A program made the translations under genes and the position numbers. The notes under the pieces were generated by a model. The model did not search any database. It worked only from the letters and a program-made list of their open reading frames with translations, and had not been told where the DNA came from. DNA of 26,063 nucleotides from Desulfobacterales bacterium S5133MH16. GTDB taxonomy: Bacteria; Desulfobacterota; Desulfobacteria; Desulfobacterales; UBA11574. Shown in pieces: positions 1,855 to 23,137 of the stretch; positions within the stretch are counted from its first letter, which is position 1, and every line of letters begins with the position of its first letter. The DNA lies in assembly GCA_001751005.1 (NCBI GenBank), contig MAXL01000486.1, forward strand, positions 1 to 26,063, read 5' to 3'.

Positions 1855-3135
1855 CTAAAGATTCAACCGATTTACCATCGCTTCAAGATAAATCGATTTC
1901 ATTTGTTGACTGGCCATTGCCTGTTTAATGGGCGGAAGTTTCAGAATAATCCCTAAAACAGCGGCCATGGCACGGTGGCTTTTCAACATCTGATTGTCGA
2001 AAATCAACTCTTGAAGCTTGCCCTGCTCAATGGCCATAACCACCACCCGGTGGGCTGTATTCAGCGGTGTAATTACCCTCCGGTTCCTGGATTGCAGGTG
2101 AATGCAATCCTCGGGACAGACCCTGGCACAAACACCACATCCCAGACAAATTTTCTCGTTAACCCGTGCCTTTTTCTTTTTGGGATGATGGGGATCGTTG
2201 GCCGAAACCAGGCTCATCGCCTCGACCGGGCATACGGTTACACATTTTCTGCACCCCGTGCATGCCTCATCTTGAATTTTCGGGATGAAATTGGTTGTAT
2301 GAACCGGCTGCAAAATCGCAAATTTCCGGGCGGTAATCATGGCATCGCAGCAGCATCCGCAGCAATTGCAGATAAAATTCACATCCTTTCTAACATTGTC
2401 GCCGAATTGTACCAGATTGTGCAAATAAGCTGTTTCAAGCAGTTCCAGACATTCCGACACCTCAACCCGTCGGGCATAGTCATATTTTACCAGCGATGAC
2501 GCCACCGAGTTAAAGGTCATGCATATTTCTTTGGGCGCATCACAATCTCGGCCCATATGAGACATTTTATGGCGGCAATAGCAGGTGCTGATCCCTATGT
2601 GTGAAGCGGTTTTAATGACCTCGGTCGCCCTTTCATAATCAAAAATCTGTAATGCGTTCTCCCTTGAAAGAACCGGCTCATGAACAAAAACCCGTCCCAG
2701 CTTGGTTTCTCCGGTAAGAAACAGATTCTTGATAAAATCCTCTTCAACATTGAGATACTGGTAATACAGTTCGCTCAATAGTTTCTGATCAATGTCGCCT
2801 CTGATACGCATCAGGGAAAATTCAAAAAATCCCGCCATAGGGGGCGGCAAACAGTAAACCTGACGACCGTTCTCCTCCATATCCGTCAAAATAGCTCTGC
2901 CACACAGTTGGTCCAAAATTTTCCGTGCTCTGACCCCGTCCATTTTCCATACATGGGCGGCTTTTTCAGCGGAAAACGGTCTTAATGGTAATAGTGATAC
3001 CAGTTTGGCTTCTTTTTCGCTAAAAAGCATTTCCAGGATTTTGTATAATAGTTTTGAAGGAGGCGCGCCCTGGGGAAATCGATTCAAACGATCCACCAGC
3101 TGTACATACCCTGATTTTATGGTGTGATGGGCCAT
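1855..3135 (-). CDS. 4Fe-4S dicluster protein with N-terminal HTH-like region and Cys-rich middle domain
   Basis: CTGCRKCVTVCP and CLGCGVCARVCP ferredoxin motifs, plus CYCR, C(KEI)C and CNCCGCCC motifs. GGAGG RBS precedes ATG at 3135, which is preferred over the TTG at 3147. Confidence 0.8.
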   Translation of the reverse strand: MAHHTIKSGYVQLVDRLNRFPQGAPPSKLLYKILEMLFSEKEAKLVSLLPLRPFSAEKAAHVWKMDGVRARKILDQLCGRAILTDMEENGRQVYCLPPPMAGFFEFSLMRIRGDIDQKLLSELYYQYLNVEEDFIKNLFLTGETKLGRVFVHEPVLSRENALQIFDYERATEVIKTASHIGISTCYCRHKMSHMGRDCDAPKEICMTFNSVASSLVKYDYARRVEVSECLELLETAYLHNLVQFGDNVRKDVNFICNCCGCCCDAMITARKFAILQPVHTTNFIPKIQDEACTGCRKCVTVCPVEAMSLVSANDPHHPKKKKARVNEKICLGCGVCARVCPEDCIHLQSRNRRVITPLNTAHRVVVMAIEQGKLQELIFDNQMLKSHRAMAAVLGIILKLPPIKQAMASQQMKSIYLEAMVNRLNL

Positions 3136-3147
3136 AAAAACCTCCAA

Positions 3148-3645
3148 TTAAATTTCAAGGGTCTTTAAATATTCTACTGCTTTTGGAATTTCCCGTTCGC
3201 TGAAAACACGGATATTATTTTCTTGCAGAAGGACTGTGGTAACGCCTTTGCCCGGCTTTTCAATTCCGGAAAAACTACCGTCGTAAATATATGTACTGCC
3301 GCATGAAGGACTACCATCTTTCATGACGGCAAGCTTGATTTTACGTGAGCGAGCAAATTCAAGTGCTTTTTGAGCACCGGTCAAAAAATATTGGGTAACA
3401 TCCTTCCCTTTGATGTTCATGATCCTTGCATGCCCATTCAATACCGCACTTCCATCGTAGCACAAGATTTCTGAACAGGGTCTTGGCACCGGAAGCCCGC
3501 CGGCAACTTCGGGGCAAAATGGCACCAGACGTCCCCGGAGCTTCCAATCCGATAACATACGGCTATCATACTGCTTAACCCGTCCGTTGTAACGGACATT
3601 TTCTCCGATTAAGCAGGCGCTGACAAGCACTTTATTCATTTTCAC
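3148..3645 (-). CDS. DUF523 / 2-thiouracil desulfurase (TudS)-family protein
   Basis: Family motifs VSACLIGENVRYNG, CPEVAGGLPVPR and KDGSPSCGS. Start is GTG 3645 or ATG 3639. Confidence 0.85.
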   Translation of the reverse strand: MKMNKVLVSACLIGENVRYNGRVKQYDSRMLSDWKLRGRLVPFCPEVAGGLPVPRPCSEILCYDGSAVLNGHARIMNIKGKDVTQYFLTGAQKALEFARSRKIKLAVMKDGSPSCGSTYIYDGSFSGIEKPGKGVTTVLLQENNIRVFSEREIPKAVEYLKTLEI

Positions 3646-3733: not shown

Positions 3734-3887
3734 TTGATGGCTTCGTAAAAGTCCGATTTAGACGGTTTCGTAAAAAGTTCAAATTCAAGGCGTGCAAATT
3801 TTGCAATCATGAGGCATACTTATCGTACGTTGAATGATTGTGAAATGCAGCACAACGCAGAAGTTGGACTTTTTACGAGACCGTCAA
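3734..3887. mobile_element. MITE-like palindromic element, type A copy 1
   Basis: Imperfect ~22-bp terminal inverted repeats TTGATGGCTTCGTAAAAGTCC / GGACTTTTTACGAGACCGTCAA, with a second internal copy of the left end. About 93% identical by hand alignment to the reverse complement of 12104-12258. No coding capacity. Confidence 0.85.
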
Positions 3888-4086: not shown

Positions 4087-4142
4087 TCGATGCTGTTTTT
4101 ATTTAAATTTATAGAACCGCCTAAATAATTGGAGAAATGCCT

Positions 4143-4442
4143 ATGGAATTCTGGAGGGTTCCACTTGACGCGGACACAATACAAGTCTCTCTAGGCATCG
4201 TGCACATCCTGGAGGATCGATGTAAAGGATGCGGATACTGTATCGAGTACTGCCCCAAGCAGGCTCTGGAATTTTCTGCAAATTTCAACCAAAAAGGATA
4301 TCATCCCCCGGTGGTTATAAAGCCCGAGGAATGTGTTAACTGTCACTACTGCGAAATCATTTGCCCGGAGTTTGCTATATTTTCAGTAGAAAGCCCACAA
4401 ACGACCAAACCCGGCCAATCCGAAACCAACCATGCGATATAA
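4143..4442 (+). CDS. korD: 2x[4Fe-4S] ferredoxin-like delta subunit of 2-oxoacid:ferredoxin oxidoreductase
   Basis: CKGCGYCIEYCP and CVNCHYCEIICP motifs; first gene of the oxidoreductase cluster. GGAGA RBS spacing favours ATG 4143 over 4137. Confidence 0.8.
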   Translation: MEFWRVPLDADTIQVSLGIVHILEDRCKGCGYCIEYCPKQALEFSANFNQKGYHPPVVIKPEECVNCHYCEIICPEFAIFSVESPQTTKPGQSETNHAI

Positions 4443-4513
4443 ACCGGCAATCATCATTTTAACTATATGAAACCACGGAAGCACACAGATTATAAAGGTT
4501 AGACAAGAGACAA

Positions 4514-5659
4514 ATGAAACCAGCGGTCCTTACCGGTGAATATTTTATGACCGGCGACGTTGCCTGTGCCGAAGGCGCACTGGCAGCAGGATGCCGTTTT
4601 TTTGGGGGATACCCCATAACACCAGCCACTGAGATCGCCGAACGGATGGCTATCCGGCTTTCTCATGTTGACGGATGTTTTATCCAGATGGAAGACGAAA
4701 TCGGCGCCATGGCCTCAGTACTTGGTGCATCATGGGGCGGTATGAAAAGCATGACCGCCACTTCCGGTCCCGGTTTCAGTCTTATGATGGAAAATATTGG
4801 TCTGGGGATCTGTACAGAAACTCCCTGTGTTGTGGTAAATGTTCAGCGCGGCGGTCCCTCTACAGGTCTTCCTACCCATGGTGCCCAGGGCGACATGATG
4901 CAGGCCCGATGGGGATCACATGGGCACTATGAAATTATTGCCCTAGCGCCGTCCTCACCCCAGGAAATATTTTATTTAACGATCACAGCGTTTAATCTGA
5001 GTGAAAAATATCGGTTGCCGGTTCTCATCATGACCGACGAAATCATTGGGCATATGAGTGAAAAAGTCATTATACCCGAGGCAAAATCAATTAAGACTGT
5101 ATCACGTCCCAAACCCAAAGGGAGAAAAGACCGCTTCAAACCCTTTGCACCCGGGCCTAACGGTGTCGCACCCATGCCGGCGGCAGGGGAAGGCTATAAC
5201 CTGCACATTACTGGTCTTACCCACGATGAAAAGGGGTACCCGGTAATGACCGTAGAAGCTCAGACGGAGATGATGGCCAGGATTACCGAAAAAATCCAAA
5301 GAAATTTAGACGACATCATTCGGACAGATAGTTACCTCCTCGAAGATGCTGAAATTGCCGTTGTTTCTTATGGAATTTCGGCCCGAACCAGCATTGCCGC
5401 GGTAGCTGAAGCCAGAAAGCTGGGGATCAAGGCCGGACTTTTGCGTCTGGTGACGATCTGGCCTTTTCCCGAAGATCAGATTCGCAAGTTGGCAGACAGA
5501 GTCAAGGGATTCGTGACGGTAGAAATTAATCTGGGTCAGATTCATCGGGAGGTTGAACGATGCGCAGGGGGCAAGGTTCCTATCTTTTTAGTCGGACATC
5601 CCGGCGGGACGATTATCCATCCGGACAGCGTTGTTAAAATGTTGATGGAGGCCTTTTAA
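4514..5659 (+). CDS. korA: 2-oxoacid:ferredoxin oxidoreductase alpha subunit
   Basis: GYPITPATE, QMEDEI, TATSGPGFSLM and QRGGPSTGLPT motifs. Substrate specificity is not determinable from sequence. Confidence 0.93.
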   Translation: MKPAVLTGEYFMTGDVACAEGALAAGCRFFGGYPITPATEIAERMAIRLSHVDGCFIQMEDEIGAMASVLGASWGGMKSMTATSGPGFSLMMENIGLGICTETPCVVVNVQRGGPSTGLPTHGAQGDMMQARWGSHGHYEIIALAPSSPQEIFYLTITAFNLSEKYRLPVLIMTDEIIGHMSEKVIIPEAKSIKTVSRPKPKGRKDRFKPFAPGPNGVAPMPAAGEGYNLHITGLTHDEKGYPVMTVEAQTEMMARITEKIQRNLDDIIRTDSYLLEDAEIAVVSYGISARTSIAAVAEARKLGIKAGLLRLVTIWPFPEDQIRKLADRVKGFVTVEINLGQIHREVERCAGGKVPIFLVGHPGGTIIHPDSVVKMLMEAF

Positions 5660-5662
5660 ACC

Positions 5663-6535
5663 ATGGAAGAAATCCCGACACCATCCAAAGAACAACCCCA
5701 TCATCCCCTGGATGATCTTATCCGCACGGATCGCATTCCCCATATCTGGTGTCCGGGGTGCGGAATCGGAACGGTGTTTTCTGCGTGTCTGGCTGCTCTG
5801 AAAGCAAGCGGTATCAACCTTCAAAAAACTGTGATGGTCTCGGGAATCGGCTGTTCGGGACGTGCCGCCGGTTATGTTAAGCTGGATTCCTTTCATACAA
5901 CTCACGGGAGGGCCATACCCTTTGCCACAGGATTAAAACTTGCCAACCCCGAACTTAATATCGTGGTTTTCAGCGGTGACGGCGATCTCTTCGCCATCGG
6001 CGGAAACCATTTTATCCATGCAGCCCGGCGGAATATGGATATAACGGTTATCTGTGTAAATAATTTAAATTATGGCATGACCGGCGGCCAGGTGGCCGCA
6101 ACCACACCTTACCTGGCGAAATCGACAACAACACCTGCCGGAAATCCTGAAACTCCTTTTAATCTGCCGTTAATGGCCTATGCGTGCGGCGCCACGTATG
6201 TGGCCCGATGGACCATGCTGCACATCAGGGATCTTACGGATTCCATAACAGAAGCGCTTTGTAAAAAAGGGTTTTCCTTTATTGAAGCACTTTCTCCGTG
6301 TCCGGTAAATTACGGTCGACGCAATAAACAAAAACCCCTTGATATGTTAAAGTTATACCAGGAAAAAGCGATTATCAAAAATGATGCGGATCCTGCTACA
6401 CTTGATATAGACTTTGAAAAGGGCATCATTTTGGGCAAATTTATCGATCTGGATCGACCAACGTTTATTGAAAATTATGACAAAATCTACCGGCCGAGCC
6501 GTCTTCAGGAAAACGTTCCGGAGTTGAACTCATGA
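5663..6535 (+). CDS. korB: 2-oxoacid:ferredoxin oxidoreductase beta subunit (TPP-binding)
   Basis: WCPGCG, SGIGCS, GDGD...GGNH and NNLNYGMTGGQ motifs, plus SPCP. Confidence 0.93.
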   Translation: MEEIPTPSKEQPHHPLDDLIRTDRIPHIWCPGCGIGTVFSACLAALKASGINLQKTVMVSGIGCSGRAAGYVKLDSFHTTHGRAIPFATGLKLANPELNIVVFSGDGDLFAIGGNHFIHAARRNMDITVICVNNLNYGMTGGQVAATTPYLAKSTTTPAGNPETPFNLPLMAYACGATYVARWTMLHIRDLTDSITEALCKKGFSFIEALSPCPVNYGRRNKQKPLDMLKLYQEKAIIKNDADPATLDIDFEKGIILGKFIDLDRPTFIENYDKIYRPSRLQENVPELNS

Positions 6536-7140
6536 CCGACTCTCAAAATCATAAACAGAAAAAAAAGGAAATTATAATCACAGGCTTTGGTGGGCAGGGT
6601 ATTATCCTTGCGGGTATTATCCTGGGAAAAGCGGCTGCCATTGGTGAACACAGGGAAAGCACACTTGTCCAGTCATACGGGCCCGAGTCTCGTGGAGGGT
6701 CGTGTAGTGCTCAGGTTGTCATTTCCGATGAAATGATTCATTACCCTTATGTCAATCACCCGGATATTTTGGTCTGCATGTCTCAATCAGGCTATGATAA
6801 ACTCATCAAACAGATGAAGGAAAACGGAACGTTAATCATTGATCAAAATCTGGTTCACCCGGCCCGTGGATTGAAATGTGACTTTTTTTCTATCCCTGCC
6901 ACCAGCATGGCCGAAGAGCTTGGACGAGTAATGATTGCCAATATCATTATGCTCGGTTTTTTAACAGCCGTCACAGAGATTATTTCCATGGATGCAGCCC
7001 AAAAATCCGTCACAGAATCAGTTCCAAAGGGCACTGAAAAACTTAACACCAAGGCCTTTAAAAAAGGTCATGACTATGGTCTGGCCACGCTCAAGGGACG
7101 ACAGAAAAAGGCCGCGGGTCAAGCAGGAGCGATTTCATGA
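6532..7140 (+). CDS. korC: 2-oxoacid:ferredoxin oxidoreductase gamma subunit
   Basis: GFGGQGIILAG, QSYGPESRGG and ANIIMLG motifs; ATGA overlap with korB. Confidence 0.92.
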   Translation: MTDSQNHKQKKKEIIITGFGGQGIILAGIILGKAAAIGEHRESTLVQSYGPESRGGSCSAQVVISDEMIHYPYVNHPDILVCMSQSGYDKLIKQMKENGTLIIDQNLVHPARGLKCDFFSIPATSMAEELGRVMIANIIMLGFLTAVTEIISMDAAQKSVTESVPKGTEKLNTKAFKKGHDYGLATLKGRQKKAAGQAGAIS

Positions 7141-10100
7141 AACGTCCCAAAGAACGGCTTCACCGGGTCACGGTTATCGGAGCGACACCGGCCGGCATCG
7201 CCGCAACCAACAAGCTTGGAGAACTGGGCATTCCCCTTACCCTTGTTGATTCTGATTATGATCTGGATAAAAAACTTTCCCGGGATGAGTGGGTTCTGAA
7301 ATCAGGTGTTCCTTTAAACCATGCCCATCGACCCGGGCTTATCAGAATTTTGAGAAACCCTGGCATTCGATGCATTTTTCCCGCAAAAATCTCCTCGATT
7401 AAGCATAATCGACAAGGATTCCGTGTTCACCTAAACATCCTTCAAACCTTCGTAGATCAAGACAAATGCACCCTTTGCGGTCGTTGTGTTGAAATCTGCC
7501 CGGTTCTGCTTCCCGGAGGAGAAAAAGCTATCCAAATTAACAGTCAGCGAAGCCTTCCCGGCAGGCCGGTCATAGACAAGCGGTGCCGGCCACTCTGCCA
7601 GGCAAACTGTCCGCTAGGGGTAAACGCCCAGGGTTACATCGCCCTTGTAAAAGCCGGCAGGTTTGCCGAAGCGCTTGACCTTATCAGGGAAAATAATGTT
7701 CTGCCCGGCATTTGCGGACGCATTTGTACCCACCCTTGTGAGAACTTTTGCAGAAGGGGTGAACTTGATGAGCCTGTCGCCATTATGGATATTAAGCGAT
7801 TTGTGGCAGACTATGATCGCTCCGATCCCAAAGACATAAAATTATCTGATGTTCATAACAGGTCAGAAAAGATCGTCATTATCGGCTCAGGCCCGGCCGG
7901 GATTGCCGCCGCTGCGGACCTGGCCCGATTCGGCCATGATGTAACCGTTTTCGAAAAAGAGAAAGAAGTTGGCGGGTTGCTCCGTTACGGAATTGGGCGT
8001 CATCGCCTGCCCAAAGATATCCTGGATGTTGATCTTGAGTATATTAAGAAACTTGGTGTACGATTCATTATCGGCCATGCCATTGATCTGGTCCAAGATA
8101 TGGATCGGCTCAAAAAAGACTTTGACGCTGTCATTATCTCCATTGGGACGTGGGCTGACCTAAAATTAGGGGTCCCCGGAGAGATGCTGGAAGGGGTTGA
8201 AGGCTGCCTCTCTTTTTTGGGACGTCTCTATCGCGGCGAAATAAAAGCACTAAACGAAAAAGTAGCGGTGATTGGGGACGGCAACGCCGCATTTGACCTG
8301 GCCCGCACACTCTTGCGTCTGGGTGCCCATGTCACAATTCTATCCTGGTTCCCTGAAGATCTTATCCCTGCCAATACCGAAGAAATTGGGGCCACCAGGG
8401 AAGAAGGAATTCTGATTCGGGACTGCACCCAAACCATTGCGTTCTTAGGTCAAAACGGTAAGCTCAATCGGCTGCGTTGCATGCCCACCAAACCCGGAGA
8501 ACCTGATGCTCAGGGTATCCCCTGGCCGGTCATTATCCCCAATAGCCAGCCCTTTGAACTCGAGTTTGACCGGGCTTTTGTTGCCATCGGTCAAAGGGGC
8601 GCACTCCAGGGCAAAAACAATTCGTTCAGCTTTACTGTTTCGGAACAAGGATTGATTGAGGTTGATGAATATTTGCGCACGAATTTATCGAATGTCTATG
8701 CTGTGGGAGATGCGGTTTCAGGACCCTCATCCGTTGTTGAGGCCATGGCCGCAGGCAGGAGGGTTGCCCGCACCGTTCATAGCGATATTTGTAAAGAGGA
8801 GGTCTTTTACCCTCAGCTCTTAAGACCGGAGGACAAAGATTTTCCGGAAATTCCGGCGGACATACCTTCTCAGGCACGGACGATTATGCCGGAAAGGCAA
8901 CCTGCGGTGCGCAAGGATAGTTTCTTGGAAGTCTCCATGGGCCTGAGTGAACAACAGGTCTTTTTGGAAGCAGCCCGTTGTCTTCAATGCGGAGTCTGCA
9001 GCGAATGTCTTCAGTGCGTTGATGCGTGCGGTGCAATCCTTGCAATAAACCATGTACAGGCTCCGGAAGAAACCATTGAACAAACCGGTGTGGTTATCAT
9101 TGCAGACCCGGAATTAGCCCCGAAGATAAAGGGTGAGGATGTCATCCGAGTGTATGGGCCCAGAGCGGCAAAGCCGGATGTTAACGCCATGTTTGTTCGA
9201 GGCTTTGCCGCAGCTTCCCAGGCCATGATATTGCTTGGGGGAACCTTACAACGGCCAAAAGGATATGGTTTGTCGTTTTCCACTCCTGATCCGGGTCTTT
9301 CTCCGGAAATCCGAGTGGGAGTTTTTGTCTGTAAATGTAACAATACCTTTGGATGGCTTGATGACATGAATCAATATGTCGCGGGATTACAATCTCAAGA
9401 AGATGTGGTTCATGCTCAAGTTGTAAACTCGGCCTGTACTCATGAAGGATCATCGAGTATTATCCGAACGATTCGTGAAAAAGGACTCACCCGCGTGGTA
9501 CTGGCATCCTGTGTCTGCTGCCCCCTCAATTTTATTTGCAGCGCCTGTACGGACCAGCGAAGCCGTCTGAAAAACGCCTTGTTTACCGGGACAGGGATCA
9601 GTCGTTCAATGGTGCAGACATGCAACTTAAGAGGAGAAGTCCTTCGTCTTTTAAAACAAAATAAGTCCCTGGCCGTGAAAAAATTTACCGGACTCATCGA
9701 TCGTTCCGTCAATCGGGCAAGAAGATTGAAACCGCTTCCGGATCTTATTAGAAACTATAATTTCACTACGGCGGTAATCGGGACCTCCGAAGTCGCCATA
9801 AGCAGTGCATTGAGCCTTGCCCAAGCAGGGCTGGAGGTATTTTGGTTCCCACAGTCGCAAAAACCGCCGAATCAAATTCCTGATCATCCCAATGTGCACA
9901 GCTTCGGAGGCTTTTCCATCAAAGAATTGAGCGGAACTCTTGGTAATTTTCACATCATCGCAGAATCAGGCAATTCCCGACAAATAATAACTGTGGGAAC
10001 GGTCATCCTGGATGAAAAGTCAAGAAAGAACATTAAGTATATTCACCAGGAGGGTCTGCCGGGCCGAACCGTATCTTCTTCTATGCAGGACATGGGCGTG

Positions 10101-10496
10101 CCCGGAATACCATTCTTTTATCCGGGGTCAACCGCCATTTCCGGACTTTTTTTAGCTGAACCGCCGGGCATCAATGTCTCTAACCGGAAAAAAGGTGCTG
10201 CCGCTGCAGCTCAGGCGGCAGCCATTATGCCGCGGGAACCGCGCCATAACAAAGGATATACCGTTGCAGTGGATGAAAGCCTGTGCCGAAGTTGTGGACG
10301 CTGCATTCGCGTCTGCCCTTATCAGGCGGTGACATTGCACAGAAACGCTATTGACGGATGGGCCGCCTGGGTGGACGAGACTCTGTGTAAAGGCTGCGGC
10401 AATTGCATTTCCGTATGTCCCACCAATGCCGCGGACAGCCCGTATCGTAACCAGGAATTTCTCGAACAGACACTTGAAAAAATATTGCTGACGTAG
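7137..10496 (+). CDS. Large HdrL-like flavoprotein: degenerate HdrA segments surrounding a GltD-like FAD/NAD(P)H module, with several [4Fe-4S] motifs
   Basis: GltD-like CQANCPLG..CGRICTHPCE, GSGPAG (FAD), GDGNAAFD (NAD(P)H) and EAARCLQC motifs. HdrA N-domain-like GVFVCKC..SAC..ASCVCCP..CNLR. Ferredoxin motifs CTLCGRCVEICP, CRSCGRCIRVCP and CKGCGNCISVCP. ATGA overlap with korC. Confidence 0.8.
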   Translation: MKRPKERLHRVTVIGATPAGIAATNKLGELGIPLTLVDSDYDLDKKLSRDEWVLKSGVPLNHAHRPGLIRILRNPGIRCIFPAKISSIKHNRQGFRVHLNILQTFVDQDKCTLCGRCVEICPVLLPGGEKAIQINSQRSLPGRPVIDKRCRPLCQANCPLGVNAQGYIALVKAGRFAEALDLIRENNVLPGICGRICTHPCENFCRRGELDEPVAIMDIKRFVADYDRSDPKDIKLSDVHNRSEKIVIIGSGPAGIAAAADLARFGHDVTVFEKEKEVGGLLRYGIGRHRLPKDILDVDLEYIKKLGVRFIIGHAIDLVQDMDRLKKDFDAVIISIGTWADLKLGVPGEMLEGVEGCLSFLGRLYRGEIKALNEKVAVIGDGNAAFDLARTLLRLGAHVTILSWFPEDLIPANTEEIGATREEGILIRDCTQTIAFLGQNGKLNRLRCMPTKPGEPDAQGIPWPVIIPNSQPFELEFDRAFVAIGQRGALQGKNNSFSFTVSEQGLIEVDEYLRTNLSNVYAVGDAVSGPSSVVEAMAAGRRVARTVHSDICKEEVFYPQLLRPEDKDFPEIPADIPSQARTIMPERQPAVRKDSFLEVSMGLSEQQVFLEAARCLQCGVCSECLQCVDACGAILAINHVQAPEETIEQTGVVIIADPELAPKIKGEDVIRVYGPRAAKPDVNAMFVRGFAAASQAMILLGGTLQRPKGYGLSFSTPDPGLSPEIRVGVFVCKCNNTFGWLDDMNQYVAGLQSQEDVVHAQVVNSACTHEGSSSIIRTIREKGLTRVVLASCVCCPLNFICSACTDQRSRLKNALFTGTGISRSMVQTCNLRGEVLRLLKQNKSLAVKKFTGLIDRSVNRARRLKPLPDLIRNYNFTTAVIGTSEVAISSALSLAQAGLEVFWFPQSQKPPNQIPDHPNVHSFGGFSIKELSGTLGNFHIIAESGNSRQIITVGTVILDEKSRKNIKYIHQEGLPGRTVSSSMQDMGVPGIPFFYPGSTAISGLFLAEPPGINVSNRKKGAAAAAQAAAIMPREPRHNKGYTVAVDESLCRSCGRCIRVCPYQAVTLHRNAIDGWAAWVDETLCKGCGNCISVCPTNAADSPYRNQEFLEQTLEKILLT

Positions 10497-10499
10497 AAA

Positions 10500-12083
10500 A
10501 TGGACGAATTCAAAATAATCTTATTTTTATGTAACTGGGGGCCGCATACCGCTTTCCAAACCCTTCAGGACAATGGAAGTGAAATTCCCGATGAGGTAAG
10601 TATGATTCGGATTCCCTGCACCGGAAGAATCAGCAAATCCCTTTTGTTTAAAGCGTTTGAAATGGGAGCGGATGGTGTGGTTCTGGCAGGATGTAAACCG
10701 GGAACCTGCCGATACGGCAGCGGTACGGCTACCGCCCGTGAGAATACCGAAGATACTCGGGATATTATTGGGCTTCTCGGCCTGGGAAAAGAACGGTTGC
10801 GGCATGTCACATTTCTCCCGGATGAGTCGGATCTGCTACTGCAATTTTTGAATGACTTTTGCAATCAAATCCGGTCGTTGGGCCCGAGTCCTATGGCGCC
10901 TATCCGAATACCGGAATCAGAAGTTATAAGCCGTGAGTCTGTAGCCGAAATCGTTTCTTATCATGATGCCTTTGCATGTCAGGACTGCGGGAAATGCTCT
11001 TCCGCTTGTCCTCTGGCACTGATCGGCAAACCATTCTCGCCCCGGGAACTGGTTAATTCCATCATTGCCGGTGATATGGATTCTCCTTCTGTAAACAAAG
11101 ATGTTTGGTCCTGCCTGACCTGCGGCCTTTGTTATGACCGCTGTCCATCGGCAGTTAATTTTCCCGAGTTTATGCGAGATATTCGCCACGTTATCAGAAA
11201 AAATGGGGGAAATGCTCATGAGGCGCACGGAGGCTTTTTTCAGTCTCTGATGCGAGCCATGACATCACCCGGGCTCAAAACAGAGCGATGGGATTGGCTG
11301 CCCCAAGATGCGGAGGTTGATTCCAAGAGTAAGATCCTTTTTTTCGGCGGTTGTACCCCGTACTTTGACATTTTTTTCAGAAACCATCTCGGTGTTGAAA
11401 CCCTTAATATCTTAAAAGATAGTCTTCGTCTTCTCAATTTCTTCGATATTAAACCGGCCCTGCTCCAGGATGAGCGATGCTGCGGACATGATCTTCTCTG
11501 GTCGGGAGACCAAGAAAATTTTTTAAAATTAGCAGCAATAAATGTGGATTCGATCCATAACCTTGGAATTGATGAGGTGATTACGGCTTGCCCGGAGTGC
11601 TATAGGACACTGGCCCATGATTACCCAAAACATGGGATCAAATTAAATTTCAAGGTAACCCATATCTATGAACTGCTTGAAAACGAGATCAGCAAAGGTG
11701 CGATAGATTTTAAAAAAATTGATAAAAAGATAACCTTCCAGGATTCGTGTCGTTTAAACTGGCTCGAATCGCCTGCAGATCTTCCCAGAAAATTGATCCG
11801 TCGCCTCAAGCCAAGCAGCTTCCGGGAAATGCAGAATAATGGGAGTTCGGCCATATGTTGCGGGAATTGCGCATGGACTGGATGTGATGCGTTCAGCAAG
11901 GCTCTTCAGGTCAAACGCTTGAGACAGGCCCATGCCACAGAAAGTGATCTTCTGGTCACCGCCTGCCCCAAATGCCAGATTCATCTCCGTTGTGCCATGG
12001 AAGATCCTTTTCTCGGAGAAGAACTTAAGATGGAGATGATAGACTTGACCGGTATTATTGCAAAGACCATTTACTGGGAGTAA
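10500..12083 (+). CDS. MvhD/FlpD + HdrC-like + two CCG domains fusion (HdrD-like)
   Basis: N-terminal FLCNWG, IRIPCTGR and GCKPGTCRY (MvhD-like). CQDCGKCSSACP and CLTCGLCYDRCP (HdrC-like). RCCGH/TACPEC and ICCGNC/TACPKC (CCG domains). Confidence 0.88.
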   Translation: MDEFKIILFLCNWGPHTAFQTLQDNGSEIPDEVSMIRIPCTGRISKSLLFKAFEMGADGVVLAGCKPGTCRYGSGTATARENTEDTRDIIGLLGLGKERLRHVTFLPDESDLLLQFLNDFCNQIRSLGPSPMAPIRIPESEVISRESVAEIVSYHDAFACQDCGKCSSACPLALIGKPFSPRELVNSIIAGDMDSPSVNKDVWSCLTCGLCYDRCPSAVNFPEFMRDIRHVIRKNGGNAHEAHGGFFQSLMRAMTSPGLKTERWDWLPQDAEVDSKSKILFFGGCTPYFDIFFRNHLGVETLNILKDSLRLLNFFDIKPALLQDERCCGHDLLWSGDQENFLKLAAINVDSIHNLGIDEVITACPECYRTLAHDYPKHGIKLNFKVTHIYELLENEISKGAIDFKKIDKKITFQDSCRLNWLESPADLPRKLIRRLKPSSFREMQNNGSSAICCGNCAWTGCDAFSKALQVKRLRQAHATESDLLVTACPKCQIHLRCAMEDPFLGEELKMEMIDLTGIIAKTIYWE

Positions 12084-12103
12084 TTGTTTACAATGGAACA
12101 ATA

Positions 12104-12258
12104 TTGACGGTTTCGTAAAAAGTCCAACTTCTGCGTTGTGCTGCATTTCGTAATCATTCAACGTACGAAAAGTACGCCTCATGATTACAAAATTTACACG
12201 CCTTGAATTTGAACTTTTTACGAAACCGTCTAAATCGGACTTTTTACGAGTTCATCAA
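12104..12258. mobile_element. MITE-like palindromic element, type A copy 2 (inverted relative to copy 1)
   Basis: TTGACGGTTTCGTAAAAAGTCC ... GGACTTTTTACGAGTTCATCAA. CAATATTGA spans both junctions (12099-12107 and 12256-12264). Confidence 0.85.
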
Positions 12259-12311
12259 TATTGAAGATTAACTTTTTGCAAACACTTGTACATTGAGAAT
12301 TCGATAAAGGA

Positions 12312-14756
12312 ATGAACATGAAACCTGTTACTTCAATAGATACGAAACCGCAGATGCGTATCGGTGTCTATGTCTGTCATTGCGGCTCAAATATCGCTCA
12401 GACGGTGAACTGCCCAAAAGTTTCCGAAACAGCGTCCGGGCTTGAGGACGTTGTTATTTCAAAGCATATCGCTTACGCCTGTTCCGAGCCCGGTCAACAG
12501 GAAATCCGGGATGATATTCATGAACACGGGTTGGAGCGCATTGTTGTGGCCTCGTGCTCACCGAGACTTCATGAACCCACTTTTCGACAGATGATGCAAT
12601 CCGCCGGTCTTAATCCTTATCTTTTGGAGATGGCCAATCTCCGTGAGCAATGCAGCTGGGTTCATCTGAATGAACCTGATGCAGCAACACAAAAGGCCGA
12701 AGACCTTGTAAATATGGCCGTATCCCGGGCACGATTGCTCCAGCCGCTTGAAGAGGAAAAGCTGCCGCTCACCAAACGAACCCTGGTCATCGGCGGAGGT
12801 ATTGCCGGCATTCAGACTTCCCTTGATCTTGCAGATAACGGTTATGAGGTTGTTCTGGTGGAAAAAAATGCTTCCATTGGCGGAACCATGGCCCAGATTG
12901 ACAAGACCTTTCCGACCATGGACTGTTCCATCTGAATTCTGGGTCCTAAAATGACGGATGTCGGTCGACATCCCCTGATAAAACTCTACACCCTGAGCGA
13001 AATAGTGGATGTTAAAGGCTATGTGGGTAATTTTGATGTCAGGATCTTACAAAAGGCTCGTTATGTGTCAGAGGAAGATTGCACTGCATGTGGTGACTGC
13101 GCTATGGCTTGCCCCGTAGTTCGCCCCGATGAGTTCAATCTGGGCCTATCATCGCGCAAGGCCATTTTCACCCCTTTTCCCCAGGCTGTCCCCTCGGCCT
13201 ATGTCGTCAATATCAATGAATGCTTGGGGCACAACCCCGTGGTTTGCGCAAAATGTCTCGAAGCCTGTGAAAAGGGATGCATCAATTTTCACATGTCCGA
13301 TGATGAAATCCAGGAAAGTGTGGGATCAATCATCGTGGCGACCGGACTGGAGCCGTATGATCCCACTGAGCTTGACGAATACGGATATACAAGATTCGAA
13401 AATGTCCTTACCAGTCTTGAATTTGAACGCCTTATCAATGCCGGGGGCCCTACCAAAGGAAAACTGATTCGTCCCACAGACAGAAGACTTCCTAAATCCG
13501 TGGGCTTTATCCAGTGTGTGGGCTCACGTTCCGCCAGGAAAGGCAGCAGCTATTGCTCCAATACCTGCTGTATGAACACCATTAAAAGTACACTGGTACT
13601 CAAAGAACATTACCCTGATATTGACATAAAGGTTTTTTATATCGACATTCGTGCCGTTGGCAAAGGATTCGAAGATCTCTTTATGCGTAGCCGTCGTCTG
13701 GGAGTGCATTACTTGAGAGGTTTGCCGGGCAACGTTGAAGAGCTGCCGGATCACAGTATGCGGGTTGCGGTGGAGAATACGGTCACAGGCCGGCTGGAAT
13801 TTTTCGATCTTGATATGCTCGTCTTAGCTCTCGGCATGAAGCCGGCCAAAAACACCCGGCGGCTTCAAGAAATGCTGGGGCTTCAGCTAACGGCCGACGG
13901 TTTTTTCCTGGAAGCTCATCCGAAACTCCAACCGGTTGATGCCGCCTCTCGAGGAATTTTCTATGCGGGATGCGCCGAAAGCCCCAAAGATATCAAAGAA
14001 AGCGTTACACAGGCTTCAGCGGCCGCAGTCCGTGCCATTCGCCTGATGCATAAAGGGGAAATTTACACAGAACCGATTACTTCCGAAATAGATCCCGAAA
14101 AGTGCACAGCGTGCGGCAAATGTTCTGAAATTTGTCCCTATAATGCAATTACAAAAGGTATCAGAAAAAAGACACCGTCTGTCGTGAATACGGCAGCATG
14201 CGCCGGCTGCGGCACTTGTGCCGCGGAATGTCCTTATGACGCCATTCTTATGAACCATTTTACGGACGACCAGATTAATAACCAAATCAATTCCATGCTC
14301 GAAAAAAGTTCTCAAGAAAAGATTCTGGTATTTGCCTGCAACTGGTGCTCATATGCCGGCGCGGATTACGCGGGGGTCTCACGTCTTCAATATCCTTCAA
14401 ACGTTCGAATTATCCGGACCATGTGCTCAGGGCGAGTTGACGAAAAATTTATCTTTAACGGCTTTCTTAACGGTGCGCCGGTTGTTCTGGTAAGCGGATG
14501 CCATATTGGTGACTGTCATTATATTGATGCCAACCGCTGGACCGAAAAAAGAGTTAAAAAAATACGCAAAAAAATAGAGAAACTGGGAATCAGACCCGAA
14601 CGGCTCCAGCTTGAGTGGATTAGTGCGGCAGAAGGCAATCGATTTGCCGAGATAATGGGCAGGATGGAGAAACTTCGTCAGGGTGTTTCTATACAGGAAA
14701 TCTCAGAAACAATTGAGATCCTGAAGAATCGGGAAGAAAAATCCGAGGCTCAATAA
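12312..14756 (+). CDS. hdrA: Selenocysteine-containing heterodisulfide reductase subunit A with C-terminal MvhD fusion (814 aa, U208)
   Basis: ORF-track pieces 12312-12935 and 12951-14756 share one frame and are joined by TGA at 12933-12935 in DKTFPTMDCSI-U-ILGPKM, where HdrA has Cys or Sec. Other motifs: GVYVCHCG, GGGIAG, CVGSR..YCSNTCC, and C-terminal FACNWCSYAGAD / MCSGRV / GCHIGDCHY (MvhD). Confidence 0.93.
12956..12973 (+). promoter_or_regulatory. Bacterial SECIS-like hairpin of hdrA
   Basis: Perfect 7-bp stem GGATGTC/GACATCC with GGTC loop, starting 20 nt after the UGA. Confidence 0.75.
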
Positions 14757-15829
14757 TGACAGACTGGGTCGAACAACTCCAAAACAGCGTCAACACCCTT
14801 GACAGACTGAAGGCAGTTGTCAACGTCTCCTCGGAAGAAGAAAAGGCCATAACGACTCTAAATACGAAATGGGGGACAACCCCTTATTTTGCTTCTTTAA
14901 TGGATCCGGATACCCCTGATTGTCCCATACGTAAACAGGTTATTCCTTCTATGAAAGAAACTGAGAATCGATATGGAATTTCCAACTACCTGATCTGGGA
15001 AGAAAATCGTGATACTGAGGAGATCAGACCCGACTGTATTGCCAGGCAGTATCGTGACCGCATCGCTTTCACCGTTACCGATATCTGTGCAACTTACTGC
15101 CGTCATTGTTTTCGTAAAGAACTTGTGGTTGACCGAGATCTTAAGCTTCGCTTTGATTTGGAAGAAGGCATAGAGTGGATCCGTGAACATGAAGAGATTC
15201 GGGATGTTCTCATCACCGGCGGTGACCCTTTCATACTTTCAGACCAAAAGATTGAATATCTTATTCGCAGGCTTCGAGAAATTCACCATGTAGAAATGAT
15301 TCGCTTTGGAACCCGCACACCGATTGTTTTGCCCCATCGAATTACCGATGGTCTCAAAAAGATTCTGAGCAGCTATCATCGGGTGCCAATCTGGGTGAAT
15401 ACCCAATGTAATCATCCAAAAGAAATTACGGAAAAGACGGCAAGGGCTGTTTTCAATCTCCTATCATGCGGAGTCAACGTGGGCAACCAGGCGGTCTTGT
15501 TAAAGGGGATTAATGATGACGTGAAAACGTTTAGGAAGCTTCATCAAAAGCTTTTAGCGGTTCGCATCCGTCCTTACTATGTTTTTTATTGTGAACCGGC
15601 ACCGGGAATCGATCATTTTCGGACACCGGTTGAAAAGGGGGCTGAACTTATTCGAGATGCGCTGCAGGGTCACACGACAGGTCTGGCTCAGCCTATGTAT
15701 GTCATTGCCACCAACATCGGCAAGGTTCCTTTAATGCCGGATTATTACATCATCGAAAAGAATGAAAAAGAATATACGCTGAAAAATTATCAGGGCATTT
15801 ACACAACCTGGCCGAATATGCCGGAATAA
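14756..15829 (+). CDS. KamA-family (lysine 2,3-aminomutase-like) radical SAM protein, divergent active site
   Basis: CATYCRHCFR (CxxxCxxC), DVLITGGD, RFGTRTP, GNQAVLLKGIND, RPYY and GKVP (PLP lysine). TAATG overlap with hdrA. Confidence 0.88.
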   Translation: MTDWVEQLQNSVNTLDRLKAVVNVSSEEEKAITTLNTKWGTTPYFASLMDPDTPDCPIRKQVIPSMKETENRYGISNYLIWEENRDTEEIRPDCIARQYRDRIAFTVTDICATYCRHCFRKELVVDRDLKLRFDLEEGIEWIREHEEIRDVLITGGDPFILSDQKIEYLIRRLREIHHVEMIRFGTRTPIVLPHRITDGLKKILSSYHRVPIWVNTQCNHPKEITEKTARAVFNLLSCGVNVGNQAVLLKGINDDVKTFRKLHQKLLAVRIRPYYVFYCEPAPGIDHFRTPVEKGAELIRDALQGHTTGLAQPMYVIATNIGKVPLMPDYYIIEKNEKEYTLKNYQGIYTTWPNMPE

Positions 15830-20603: not shown

Positions 20604-21086
20604 TCATAAATATTTTTTTTCTATCAGGTCCGACAGTGCTTCAATCTCTTCCAAGCCAAATGTGGGCACATTTACACTGATATCCGTATCTGTGACAAGG
20701 GCGATGAAGGTTTTATCATCATTGCAAAGCAGCTTTTTGTTTTTACTGGAGCGACATACTTCTATTTTGGGTCTTTTTTCCTTTTTGAACCCTTCAGTGA
20801 TAACAAGATCCACGTCATCAAAATATTTTTCAATGCTTTCCAACTGCACGAAATTTTCATCTTTTATCATGACGATCCTTTCCCTGGAAGCAACAATGAC
20901 CGTATCTGCACCGGCTGCTTTGTGACGCCAGCTATCCTTTCCTTTTTTGTCCATATCAAAATCATGAGAAGCGTGTTTAACAGTCCCTACCCTGTATCCC
21001 CGTTTTTTAAGTTCGGGAATTAGCTTTTCGATCAATGTGGTCTTGCCGGATTTGGATTTACCTACAACAGAAATAATAGGCAGCAT
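20604..21086 (-). CDS. mobB: Molybdopterin-guanine dinucleotide biosynthesis protein B
   Basis: VVGKSKSGKTTLIEKL P-loop, VGTVKH, GKDSWRH..AGA and DLVITEGFK motifs. Confidence 0.93.
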   Translation of the reverse strand: MLPIISVVGKSKSGKTTLIEKLIPELKKRGYRVGTVKHASHDFDMDKKGKDSWRHKAAGADTVIVASRERIVMIKDENFVQLESIEKYFDDVDLVITEGFKKEKRPKIEVCRSSKNKKLLCNDDKTFIALVTDTDISVNVPTFGLEEIEALSDLIEKKYL

Positions 21087-21192
21087 GGCAACGTACCTTT
21101 TTTATTTGTAACCTCTCAAAAAATCTGATTTTTTACATTTTATCACCAGAGGTCGCCATAATTTATTGAGAAGTTGTTTTTGATTTTGTGTG

Positions 21193-21221
21193 AACATAAG
21201 TAGAAAAATAAATAATGTCAA
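21193..21221 (-). promoter_or_regulatory. Sigma70-type promoter for mobB
   Basis: Minus strand reads TTGACA-N17-TATGTT. Confidence 0.6.
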
Positions 21222-21249
21222 GGTGAGCACAAAAACCGTTCTTAACCGC

Positions 21250-21278
21250 TTGACACCCAGGACCGGTTTCTCTAAACT
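21250..21278 (+). promoter_or_regulatory. Sigma70-type promoter for the aor operon
   Basis: TTGACA-N17-TAAACT. Confidence 0.6.
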
Positions 21279-21365
21279 TGATTATGGGGAAAGATTTGAG
21301 ACAATTACGCCATTGGGTTAAAAAAAATATTTTGAAACAACACTCAAATTTTTATTGGGATTACC

Positions 21366-23114: not shown

Positions 23115-23137
23115 AATTACAATAATACAAAGAATCC

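Follow-up and report, generated by a model that had tools for sequence, protein, structure and literature searches.

A conserved seven-gene operon joining a four-subunit 2-oxoacid oxidoreductase to HdrL-like, MvhD-HdrD and selenocysteine-containing HdrA proteins in Desulfobacterota

Background

In Syntrophobacter fumaroxidans, the gene cluster Sfum_0012-0018 was named 'HdrAL/POR' from its annotation (Sedano-Nunez et al. 2018, PMC5947623). In tubeworm symbionts and Thioflavicoccus mobilis, korABCD-tfrAB is interspersed with flxABCD-hdrABC in rTCA clusters, and direct electron delivery to the OGOR acting as a carboxylase was proposed (Rubin-Blum et al. 2019, PMC6315080). Direct handing of bifurcated electrons to a CO2-fixing enzyme has a precedent in Hdr-Vhu-Fwd (PMC13518236). 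According to the account of Yan et al. 2017 given in PMC5861303, HdrA2B2C2 of Methanosarcina acetivorans uses F420H2 as the donor and free ferredoxin and CoM-S-S-CoB as the acceptors. In Desulfobacterium autotrophicum, HdrL1-3 are large fusion proteins in which a complete HdrA is joined to a GltD-like NAD(P)H module, with MvhD coming next (Strittmatter et al. 2009, PMC2702500).

Here we analyze a locus of Desulfobacterales bacterium S5133MH16 that shares features with each of these systems. The window, i.e. the whole 26,063-nucleotide stretch of contig MAXL01000486.1 that was examined, contains at positions 4137-14756 one self-contained seven-gene operon composed of korDABC, an hdrL-like gene, mvhD-hdrD and hdrA(Sec)-mvhD (Table 1). 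A previous sequence-only reading of this DNA took the combination to be uncharacterised, which holds for its biochemistry; however, the cluster had already been named in print as 'HdrAL/POR' (PMC5947623), and a similar idea of kor-hdr coupling had been published for the tubeworm symbionts (PMC6315080).

As in the operon analyzed here, the seven loci of 'HdrAL/POR' combine an HdrA/HdrL-type heterodisulfide-reductase-like set with a 2-oxoacid (called pyruvate):ferredoxin oxidoreductase, and the two clusters are presumably orthologous. In one of the Syntrophobacter/Syntrophobacteraceae genomes, the block is located at the end of the chromosome, in keeping with the low numbers of the Sfum_0012-0018 locus tags. 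The 'POR' label finds no support in the present locus, where Por profiles score 3-5 times below OGOR-type ones. With the tubeworm-symbiont cluster, the locus shares a four-subunit enzyme of OGOR type and an NAD(P)H dehydrogenase/Hdr bifurcation set; the symbiont cluster also contains a GltD-like gene. However, the symbiont cluster uses Flx subunits and separate HdrABC, whereas here, by Pfam and NCBIfam matches, there are no Flx-type genes, the NAD(P)H module takes the form of an NfnB/GltD-type core located inside HdrL, HdrB and HdrC are fused in MvhD-HdrD, and HdrA carries both MvhD and Sec, so that the block does not belong with FlxABCD-HdrABC. In addition, tfrAB and rTCA genes are absent from the block, which stands alone and is hosted by Desulfobacterota.

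HdrA, the MvhD domains and the CCG clusters are common to this block and the methanogen Mvh/Vhu(Fdh)-HdrABC-Fwd/Fmd assemblies (5ODC, 7BKB, 9SW2; PMC13518236), and 7BKB and 9SW2 are among the PDB matches here. The proposed donor is NAD(P)H, as opposed to H2 or formate, and a TPP-dependent 2-oxoacid oxidoreductase takes the place of formylmethanofuran dehydrogenase as the CO2 enzyme. Unlike in methanogens, the disulfide is presumably not CoM-S-S-CoB; Desulfobacterota are not known to make CoM or CoB. The HdrA-MvhD fusion is an architecture in common with M. acetivorans HdrA2B2C2 which, as far as the account mentioned above describes it, lacks Kor and HdrL, unlike the block here. Finally, the HdrL-like protein has the GltD/NfnB-type NAD(P)H-FAD module of the flavoproteins HdrL1-3, NfnB, StnC and DsrL and, as in HdrL1-3, HdrA-like sequence is fused to this module and an MvhD domain comes after it.

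Results

The eight genes described in the previous reading as co-oriented are all on the plus strand, as verified by open reading frames and Pfam/NCBIfam matches, and the stop/start overlaps that it noted are real (6532-6535, 7137-7140 and 14756); for korD, it chose a start at 4143, which is close to the ATG at 4137 and an alternative to it. Also in agreement with that reading, a Pfam scan of all other open reading frames of at least 80 aa detected no catalytic subunit of hydrogenase or formate dehydrogenase in the window. An aldehyde:ferredoxin oxidoreductase is encoded in the window as well (21366-23114).

Table 1 Features of the seven-gene operon and its surroundings.
Feature	Coordinates	Strand	Remarks
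MITE-like palindromic element	3747..3887	.	Upstream of korD, outside conserved module; 141 nt, 95% complementary to 12104-12244
korD	4137..4442	+	Delta subunit of four-subunit 2-oxoacid:ferredoxin oxidoreductase, 2x[4Fe-4S]; Fer4 matches, top NCBIfam OGOR_delta
korA	4514..5659	+	Alpha subunit; POR_N and PFOR_II; nearest PDB 1YD7, E 1.9e-120
korB	5663..6535	+	Beta subunit, TPP and [4Fe-4S]; TPP_enzyme_C
korC	6532..7140	+	Gamma subunit; POR domain; stop overlaps hdrL start
hdrL-like	7137..10496	+	1119-aa Fe-S flavoprotein; Pfam/NCBIfam; PDB 8OH5_C, 9BOV, 5JCA, 4YLF, 5ODC
mvhD-hdrD	10500..12083	+	[2Fe-2S] MvhD (FlpD), HdrC-like 2x[4Fe-4S] (Fer4), CCG x2; PDB MvhD and HdrC matches
Second MITE-like copy, inverted	12104..12244	.	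In hdrD-hdrA spacer
hdrA-mvhD (Sec, HdrA2 type)	12312..14756	+	One in-frame TGA read through; NCBIfam HdrA2 1195 vs. cut-off 1100
UGA (selenocysteine codon) of hdrA	12933..12935	+	In-frame; motif DCSI-U-ILGPK
SECIS-like hairpin	12956..12973	+	7-bp stem, GGUC loop, 23 nt past UGA
KamA-family radical SAM gene	14756..15829	+	TIGR00238 298.5 vs. cut-off 199.2; remnant of GS-like / KamA / M20 triad

Across Desulfobacterales, Syntrophobacterales, Desulfobulbales and Desulfatiglandales, the four orders covered by the genome-collection scan, about 90 loci have the seven genes in the same order; this order is identical in genomes of the same genus, in nine other families of the order and in the best 80 loci of that scan. 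Recurrence of this arrangement (of the seven genes, not of all eight) in about 90 independent loci is far beyond chance. Cultured carriers include Desulforhabdus sp. TSK, Desulfoferrobacter suflitae, Desulfobulbus alkaliphilus, Desulfosarcina sp. BuS5, Desulfonema ishimotonii and D. limicola, and the block is present in five Syntrophobacter/Syntrophobacteraceae genomes. Flanking genes are not conserved; the largest family among them, an MFS transporter, occurs at 6 of 66 loci. The tightest junction of the block is that between korC and hdrL (at most 5 nt in 88 of 91 loci, with an overlap in 69 of the 91). The wider spacing between hdrL and hdrD (median 20 nt) and between hdrD and hdrA (median 60 nt) counts against a complex. 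No natural fusion of Kor and HdrL was found among these loci, a long open frame in one genome not being a fusion. Cold-seep metatranscriptome contigs match korA, korB, korC, hdrL, hdrD and hdrA, and one of them spans korC/hdrL, at low depth and with DNA carry-over possible.

The alpha, beta, gamma and delta subunits of a KorDABC/OorDABC-type enzyme are all present, as indicated by Pfam and NCBIfam matches and by cysteine conservation. KorA passes the NCBIfam model for the 2-oxoacid:acceptor oxidoreductase alpha subunit (571.9 vs. cut-off 411), cysteines 30, 33, 64 and 213 of KorB are conserved, and all eight cysteines in the two CxxCxxCxxxC motifs of KorD are 100% conserved among orthologues. 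OGOR-type NCBIfam models rank first for beta (2-oxoglutarate:Fd oxidoreductase beta) and delta and second for alpha, each below its equivalog cut-off (236 vs. 364, 69 vs. 125 and 375 vs. 579, respectively), and Vor profiles, like those of Por, score far lower. These sub-cut-off equivalog scores count against the wired complex proposed below, as do the nature of KorD, a conventional delta subunit for which free ferredoxin could well be the acceptor, and the presence of at least five other KorA paralogues in the genome.

Given that KorDABC holds all parts of a stand-alone enzyme and that many paralogous loci encode an HdrL-type protein but no kor (PMC2702500), the operon could encode co-transcribed but separate enzymes, i.e. 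a ferredoxin-dependent OGOR and an independent Flx-Hdr-type NAD(P)H/ferredoxin:disulfide oxidoreductase joined only by the free ferredoxin pool. We consider this improbable because the adjacency of Kor and HdrL is unbroken in the approximately 90 loci, across several orders, with the tightest junction precisely at this point, and because neither the block nor its flanks contain a conserved ferredoxin gene.

In the HdrL-like protein, ferredoxin motifs and HdrA fragments without flavin surround an NfnB/GltD/StnC-type NAD(P)H-FAD core (approximately residues 149-640). StnC (8OH5_C) and NfnB (5JCA_L, 4YLF_B) align to residues 149-627, and 32 of 32 cluster cysteines are conserved in 92 orthologues. 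Internal homology with the neighbouring HdrA is detectable, with a degenerate GxGxxG and without the Sec motif: the FAD fold core, GxGxxG and the Sec/Cys motif are all missing from the HdrA parts, and the protein contains no Sec. Because these pieces have no flavin signatures, HdrL would seem to serve as the entry site for NAD(P)H and as a wire. With 1119 aa, compared to approximately 1480-1500 aa in the HdrL paralogues, a fragmentary HdrA part and only a partial alignment to these paralogues (37% identity, residues 66-656), the protein appears to be fairly named 'HdrL-like'.

MvhD-HdrD combines HdrC-like 2x[4Fe-4S] with two CCG domains, i.e. an HdrB-like disulfide reductase site, and so is of the HdrD / HdrBC-type CCG disulfide reductases. 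Both Cx..CCx..CxxC sets (C285, C327/C328, C364, C367 and C417, C453/C454, C489, C492) are 98-100% conserved in 83 orthologues, as are the ligands C160-170 and C205-215; the MvhD cysteines are conserved as well. No HdrE cytochrome b or transmembrane partner was found in or beside the block at any locus, which separates it from membrane-bound HdrDE. DsrC with both arm cysteines is encoded elsewhere in the genome, and, of 10 other carriers tested, 9 have a dsrA match over the cut-off.

HdrA aligns end-to-end with M. wolfeii HdrA (5ODC, E 1.7e-229; residues 3-651 of 5ODC_A to residues 14-664), with Sec208 in the position of Cys197, VIGGGIAG present and MvhD at 669-785. The full-length match, the Cys197 equivalent, the fused MvhD and the NCBIfam HdrA2 score place the protein in the HdrA2 subtype, and these features make it a likely bifurcating flavoprotein. 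A TGA codon occupies the Sec position in 77 of 77 orthologous loci, and in none is there a Cys codon. All 72 distinct sequences retain the SECIS-like hairpin, and at one stem pair U-A is replaced by C-G in a compensatory manner.

The presence of the MITE-like element upstream of korD varies among genomes of the genus. The hdrD-hdrA spacer, which holds the second copy, is 229-236 bp here and in one other locus compared to 42-66 bp in three others. In one metatranscriptome, the second copy reached a depth of more than 1600.

The eighth gene passes the KamA subfamily model (TIGR00238) but scores below the equivalog cut-offs of arginine, lysine and glutamate aminomutases (365.8 vs. 600, 356.1 vs. 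525 and 351.5 vs. 650, respectively). The sequence-only reading included it in a supercluster of eight genes tied to an unusual aminomutase, possibly for amino-acid degradation, and named a lack of linkage in other genomes as grounds for giving this up. Conserved synteny was indeed found for the seven kor-hdr genes but not for kamA. In favor of a pathway served by all eight genes, kamA abuts hdrA with a 1-nt overlap in the window, one RNA-library contig spans the hdrA/kamA junction, and the adjacency is kept within the genus. However, orthologues with 73-88% identity from sister genera and other families are found without kor-hdr, within a glutamine-synthetase-like / KamA / M20-peptidase triad, and about 85 kor-hdr blocks outside the genus lack kamA, the linkage being confined to this genus and one close sister. 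In one locus of that sister, the block is inserted upstream of an intact triad. Moreover, other genomes of the genus have a spacer of approximately 140 bp between hdrA and kamA and a ribosome-binding site of kamA's own; the overlap at 14756 is a deletion of approximately 145 bp at an AATAAT microhomology that is found only in this MAG. A shared role of the eight genes is, accordingly, very improbable. Gene neighborhoods point to insertion of the Kor-Hdr block upstream of the triad, with subsequent loss of the other two triad genes in the genus, and the kamA-like gene is a lineage-specific chance neighbour with no functional tie to the Kor-Hdr module. The aminomutase is thereby removed as a false lead, outside the Kor-Hdr system.

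Discussion

The previous reading joined the kor and hdr-type genes in one unit that connects a 2-oxoacid enzyme to NAD(P)H and to a disulfide reductase of the CCG type, and this part of it is supported by the invariant gene order in at least four orders, translational coupling of korC and hdrL, full conservation of the cofactor ligands, and the lack of any other conserved neighbour. From the genomic comparisons, we consider it reasonably probable that the seven genes encode a single soluble Fe-S/flavin complex in which Kor is wired to an HdrA-type flavin-based electron-bifurcating module. The linkage, the coupling, the intact ligands, Sec and SECIS are observed, and the physical complex, its substrates and the direction of its reaction are our inference. 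The OGOR-type Kor would be linked to the HdrA module via iron-sulfur chains, instead of free ferredoxin, and the HdrA flavin would be the junction of three redox couples. NAD(P)H (approximately −320 mV) would enter HdrL at its NfnB/GltD-type FAD site; the two CCG clusters of MvhD-HdrD would reduce a disulfide or trisulfide, for which DsrC is a candidate; and the third couple, of very low potential, would be acyl-CoA + CO2 / 2-oxoacid at Kor. The presumably orthologous 'HdrAL/POR' cluster of S. fumaroxidans was undetected in any proteome (PMC5947623), which counts against the complex.

The sequence-only reading weighed only the oxidative direction; the reductive direction, i.e. 2-oxoacid synthesis, is at least as likely, and we prefer it at roughly even odds. 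In the oxidative direction, the same complex would oxidize a 2-oxoacid and feed low-potential electrons to the Hdr module, reducing NAD(P)+ and/or DsrC, either by confurcation with a thiol to yield 2 NAD(P)H or as a ferredoxin-free 2-oxoacid:NAD(P)+/disulfide oxidoreductase. The synteny evidence applies equally to such a reaction. Furthermore, OFORs are reversible and mostly oxidative in heterotrophs, the carriers include heterotrophic degraders of propionate and hydrocarbons, and NAD+-linked 2-oxoacid oxidoreductases are known, with PadEFGHI models among the weak NCBIfam matches. However, downhill transfer from approximately −500 mV to NAD(P)+ needs neither a full bifurcating HdrA nor a CCG site, thiol-oxidising confurcation would oppose sulfite reduction in carriers of dsrAB/dsrC, and the failure to detect the cluster of S. 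fumaroxidans extends to catabolic proteomes (PMC5947623). All told, oxidative operation appears rather unlikely.

In the preferred, reductive direction, electrons from NAD(P)H would be bifurcated such that exergonic disulfide reduction pays for the low-potential electrons delivered to Kor, which would carboxylate succinyl-CoA or another acyl-CoA; in bacteria, the complex would then correspond to the Hdr-Fwd super-assembly of methanogens. The most specific form of this proposal, a ferredoxin-free CO2-fixing bifurcation machine in which HdrA splits NAD(P)H electrons between a DsrC trisulfide/disulfide, through which it would be connected with sulfite reduction, and a docked 2-oxoglutarate (2-oxoacid) synthase, is possible but tentative, with the chances somewhat against it.

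The source of very low-potential electrons for reductive carboxylation is an open question in strict anaerobes whose electrons are at the NAD(P)H or quinol level, among them sulfate reducers, syntrophs and the partners of alkane-oxidising archaea at cold seeps. Because the block is present in cultured strains, the hypothesis can be tested at the bench. If it is true, the Kor-Hdr complex would represent a new class of flavin-based electron-bifurcating enzymes with a TPP enzyme as the partner and would directly connect the redox metabolism of carbon with that of sulfur; should the DsrC-linked machine exist, dissimilatory sulfur reduction would directly fund reductive carboxylation.

Gene content of the window

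The source metagenome-assembled genome (MAG) comprises 3.0 Mb in 574 contigs, and the window is one complete 26-kb contig (C486). The ORF listing and profile scans bear out the eight co-oriented genes of the sequence-only reading, the stop/start overlaps read between them are genuine, and neither a hydrogenase nor a formate dehydrogenase catalytic subunit was detected among the remaining window ORFs scanned. A promoter and terminator scan of the window gave matches at chance level only; the sole apparent terminator of note was the SECIS-like hairpin seen from the opposite strand. Downstream of the block, genes for MobB, a tungsten/molybdenum aldehyde:ferredoxin oxidoreductase and a class II aldolase-domain protein are clustered; the oxidoreductase is a further ferredoxin-linked enzyme, with no syntenic tie to the block. 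A MITE-like palindromic element occurs in two inverted copies that flank korD through hdrD, and the copy in the hdrD-hdrA spacer is variably present across genomes of the genus. This element reached a depth of >1600 in one aquatic metatranscriptome, so that the family is either very abundant or transcribed.

Features of the window and of the loci compared with it
Feature	Location	Description	Basis
Fe-S protein and desulfurase genes	1855-3645	430-aa Fe-S protein; 2-thiouracil desulfurase-family gene (minus strand)	
MITE-like element	3747-3887; 12104-12244	141 nt, copies 95% complementary	
Eight same-strand genes	4137-15829		ORF listing, profile scans
korD, korA, korB, korC		Four-subunit 2-oxoacid:ferredoxin oxidoreductase	Profile scans
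HdrL-like gene		Fe-S flavoprotein, 1119 aa	Profile scans
MvhD-HdrD fusion		Downstream of HdrL-like gene	Profile scans
HdrA-MvhD fusion		Single in-frame TGA at 12933-12935	ORF and profile scans
KamA-family radical SAM gene	ends 15829	Last of the eight	Profile scans
Stop/start overlaps	6532; 7137; 14756		
SECIS-like hairpin	12956-12973	7-bp stem, GGUC loop, 23 nt 3' of TGA	
Spacer deletion	14750-14760	Against L002:12362-12507 (same-genus locus)	
Downstream cluster	20604-24316	MobB on minus strand	
Aldehyde:ferredoxin oxidoreductase	21366-23114		
Class II aldolase-domain protein	23138-24316		
Triad loci outside the window's genus	L006:11146-14734; L003:2868-6431; L012:2859-6433; L031:16226-19897	Divergent GS-like ligase (436 aa), KamA-like (357 aa), M20 hydrolase (392 aa)	
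HdrL-like, HdrA-related stretch 1	residues 10-158	Start of HdrA FAD domain and inserted ferredoxin	
HdrL-like, HdrA-related stretch 2	residues 723-901	HdrA N-terminal Cys domain	
HdrL-like, HdrA-related stretch 3	residues 992-1118	HdrA C-terminal ferredoxin domain	

Conservation and distribution of the seven-gene block

The seven-gene redox module, from korDABC to hdrA, is real and strongly conserved. Genomes of the same genus share the arrangement of the window exactly. Nine further families of the order have full-length HdrL-like orthologues (55-71% identity); in eight, the gene is preceded by korDABC and followed by mvhD-hdrD and hdrA, with the order unchanged, and the contig from the ninth carries hdrL alone. 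A wider scan, with one genome per species, yielded 504 relatives, and among the best 80 loci (58-91% identity), which were inspected, gene order was the same wherever the contig was long enough, except at L069, where several genes had no match, and L076, which carries a 2-kb insertion. The hosts belong to Desulfobacterales, Syntrophobacterales, Desulfobulbales and Desulfatiglandales, with one MAG each labelled Syntrophales and Acidobacteriota. The Acidobacteriota-binned contig (L037, DATKYC010000224.1) carries an HdrL-like orthologue (65% identity) together with korC, hdrD and hdrA, by either horizontal transfer or mis-binning. Many metagenomes from cold seeps and marine sediments contain almost identical DNA. 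The module is an accessory one with a patchy distribution: in an evenly drawn sample of the phylum, 14 of 283 high-quality genomes, and 14 of 199 genera, carry the orthologue.

No junction of the block, including those within kor, is as tight as korC/hdrL. Of 91 loci, 88 have these two genes no more than 5 nt apart and 69 have them overlapping, as ATGA or TAATG, which is the pattern expected if the subunits are produced in fixed stoichiometry. A 1321-aa open frame in one genome (G303) was considered as a Rosetta-stone Kor-HdrL fusion and rejected, the junction being a normal ATGA overlap and the upstream frame open by chance. Clustering of all ORFs within 5 kb of either block end at about 66 loci revealed no conserved neighbour; none of DsrC, sucCD, a ferredoxin or a regulator, sought within the same distance on each side, was conserved, and the commonest flanking family, an MFS transporter, was found at 6 of 66 loci.

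Origin of the kamA linkage

The linkage of all eight genes had also been proposed; across other genomes it holds for the kor and hdr genes and fails for kamA, which does not belong to the kor-hdr system, given that its orthologues (73-88% identity) occur without kor-hdr in sister genera and other families. Outside the block, a 436-aa glutamine-synthetase-like (GS-like) gene sits 12 nt upstream of the kamA orthologue, and an M20 glutamate-carboxypeptidase-like hydrolase gene usually comes next after it. This triad may represent a beta-amino-acid pathway, e.g. of the beta-glutamate or beta-glutamine type. At locus L031 (HdrL 79% identical), the order is thiouracil desulfurase, kor through hdrA, GS-like, KamA, M20 and CBS-ACT, an intermediate state which shows that the block entered ahead of a triad that was still complete. 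The desulfurase adjoins the triad in sister genera and so marks the kor-hdr insertion point. The Fe-S protein and desulfurase genes are upstream neighbours conserved within the window's genus and L031. The window's genus subsequently lost the GS-like and M20 genes, retaining only kamA; a GS-like orthologue was not found in the source MAG, where the best match has 35-39% identity.

In other genomes of the genus, hdrA and kamA are separated by a spacer of ~140 bp with a GGAGG ribosome-binding site. Compared with L002, the window lacks ~145 bp through a clean deletion between two AATAAT/ATAATG microhomologies, which took the spacer together with kamA's own ribosome-binding site and changed the second codon of kamA from E to T; among the genomes compared, this deletion is confined to the source MAG. 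The 1-nt hdrA/kamA overlap results from the loss of the spacer, and translational coupling of kamA to hdrA was rejected. The aminomutase link, on which the impression of an eight-gene 'supercluster' rested, is a by-product of gene loss and local deletion in the lineage.

Anatomy of the encoded proteins

All four Kor subunits and every cluster cysteine are conserved. OGOR-type profiles ranked first or second for each subunit, the cut-off being passed by the generic alpha model alone, and the Por, Vor and Ior models scored far lower; among solved structures, those nearest to the alpha subunit are Pyrococcus 1YD7, a 2-oxoglutarate synthase (8YS5) and the OGOR of Magnetococcus (6N2N). The identity of the Kor substrate is a prediction from these matches.

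In the HdrL-like protein, residues 149-627 align to StnC (8OH5_C), 9BOV, NfnB (5JCA_L, 4YLF_B) and GltD, which are NADPH-FAD-[4Fe-4S] proteins, and three other stretches are homologous to parts of the neighbouring HdrA. In the latter, the GxGxxG motif reads GATPAG and GTSEVA and the Cys/Sec motif is absent; HdrA residues ~167-520 are unmatched. Across 92 orthologues, none of the 32 cluster cysteines varies. The protein, which bears generic database names ('FAD-dependent oxidoreductase', '4Fe-4S ferredoxin', 'hypothetical protein BuS5_02559'), may be read as a flavoprotein serving as the entry point for NAD(P)H, with a long Fe-S wire.

In MvhD-HdrD, the four cysteines of MvhD, a pair of ferredoxin motifs and a pair of complete CCG motifs show 98-100% conservation. 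HdrA-MvhD scores above the HdrA2 model cut-off and aligns over the full length of M. wolfeii HdrA (E = 1.7e-229), with Sec208 aligned on Cys197 and VIGGGIAG intact. The hdrA TGA is kept in 77 of 77 loci, and the SECIS-like hairpin is conserved, including a compensatory change of a stem pair from U-A to C-G.

Expression

Four metatranscriptome runs of cold-seep or aquatic origin gave matches to korA/B/C, hdrL, hdrD, hdrA and kamA at 95-100% identity and a low depth of 1-8, these being assembled contigs only, with DNA carry-over possible. One contig each bridges korB/korC, korC/hdrL (7030-7284) and hdrA/kamA (14499-14789). These matches are weakly compatible with transcription of the block in situ.

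Proposed mechanism and direction

Kor is inherited as one unit, and probably translated as one, with an NAD(P)H flavoprotein of the NfnB type, a complete HdrA of the bifurcating type and a disulfide-reductase site of the CCG type, and we infer that the Kor and Hdr proteins form one complex. The HdrA flavin would join three couples, namely NAD(P)H (~-320 mV), a disulfide, likened to CoM-S-S-CoB at ~-140 mV (PMC5861303), and acyl-CoA + CO2 / 2-oxoacid (~-500 mV). In the reductive mode, NAD(P)H would be bifurcated, such that disulfide reduction drives carboxylation. This direction is tentatively favoured, because methanogen Hdr-Vhu/Fdh-Fwd assemblies offer a direct precedent (PMC13518236; PDB 7BKB, 9SW2), and because a full bifurcating HdrA would be superfluous for downhill oxidation. 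It is rather unlikely that the complex runs oxidatively, as originally suggested, or in a confurcating manner. For the disulfide couple, DsrC is an available candidate partner, since the source genome and a distant carrier each encode a DsrC that has the two arm cysteines, and dsrA is present in 9 of 10 other carriers. A 97% complete full-block carrier, G090 (loci L111 and L112), has no dsrA match and encodes a true DsrC with both C-terminal arm cysteines.

Relation to known systems

HdrL was defined in Db. autotrophicum (PMC2702500). In S. fumaroxidans, 'HdrAL/POR (Sfum_0012-0018)' was named and went undetected in proteomes (Sedano-Nunez et al. 2018, PMC5947623); it is very probably the same cluster, given that Syntrophobacter genomes carry the block. 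In tubeworm symbionts and T. mobilis, korABCD and tfrAB lie amid flxABCD-hdrABC, for which an OGOR-feeding complex was proposed (Rubin-Blum et al. 2019, PMC6315080); the idea is shared with the block, whereas the subunit set and the hosts differ. None of the HdrA complexes listed in the review of Buckel and Thauer includes a 2-oxoacid enzyme (PMC5861303), and a full-text literature search found no paper characterising the block. Although the gene combination had already been noticed in genome papers, it is, as first stated, uncharacterised biochemically, and the block constitutes a variant of the HdrA-based bifurcating systems.
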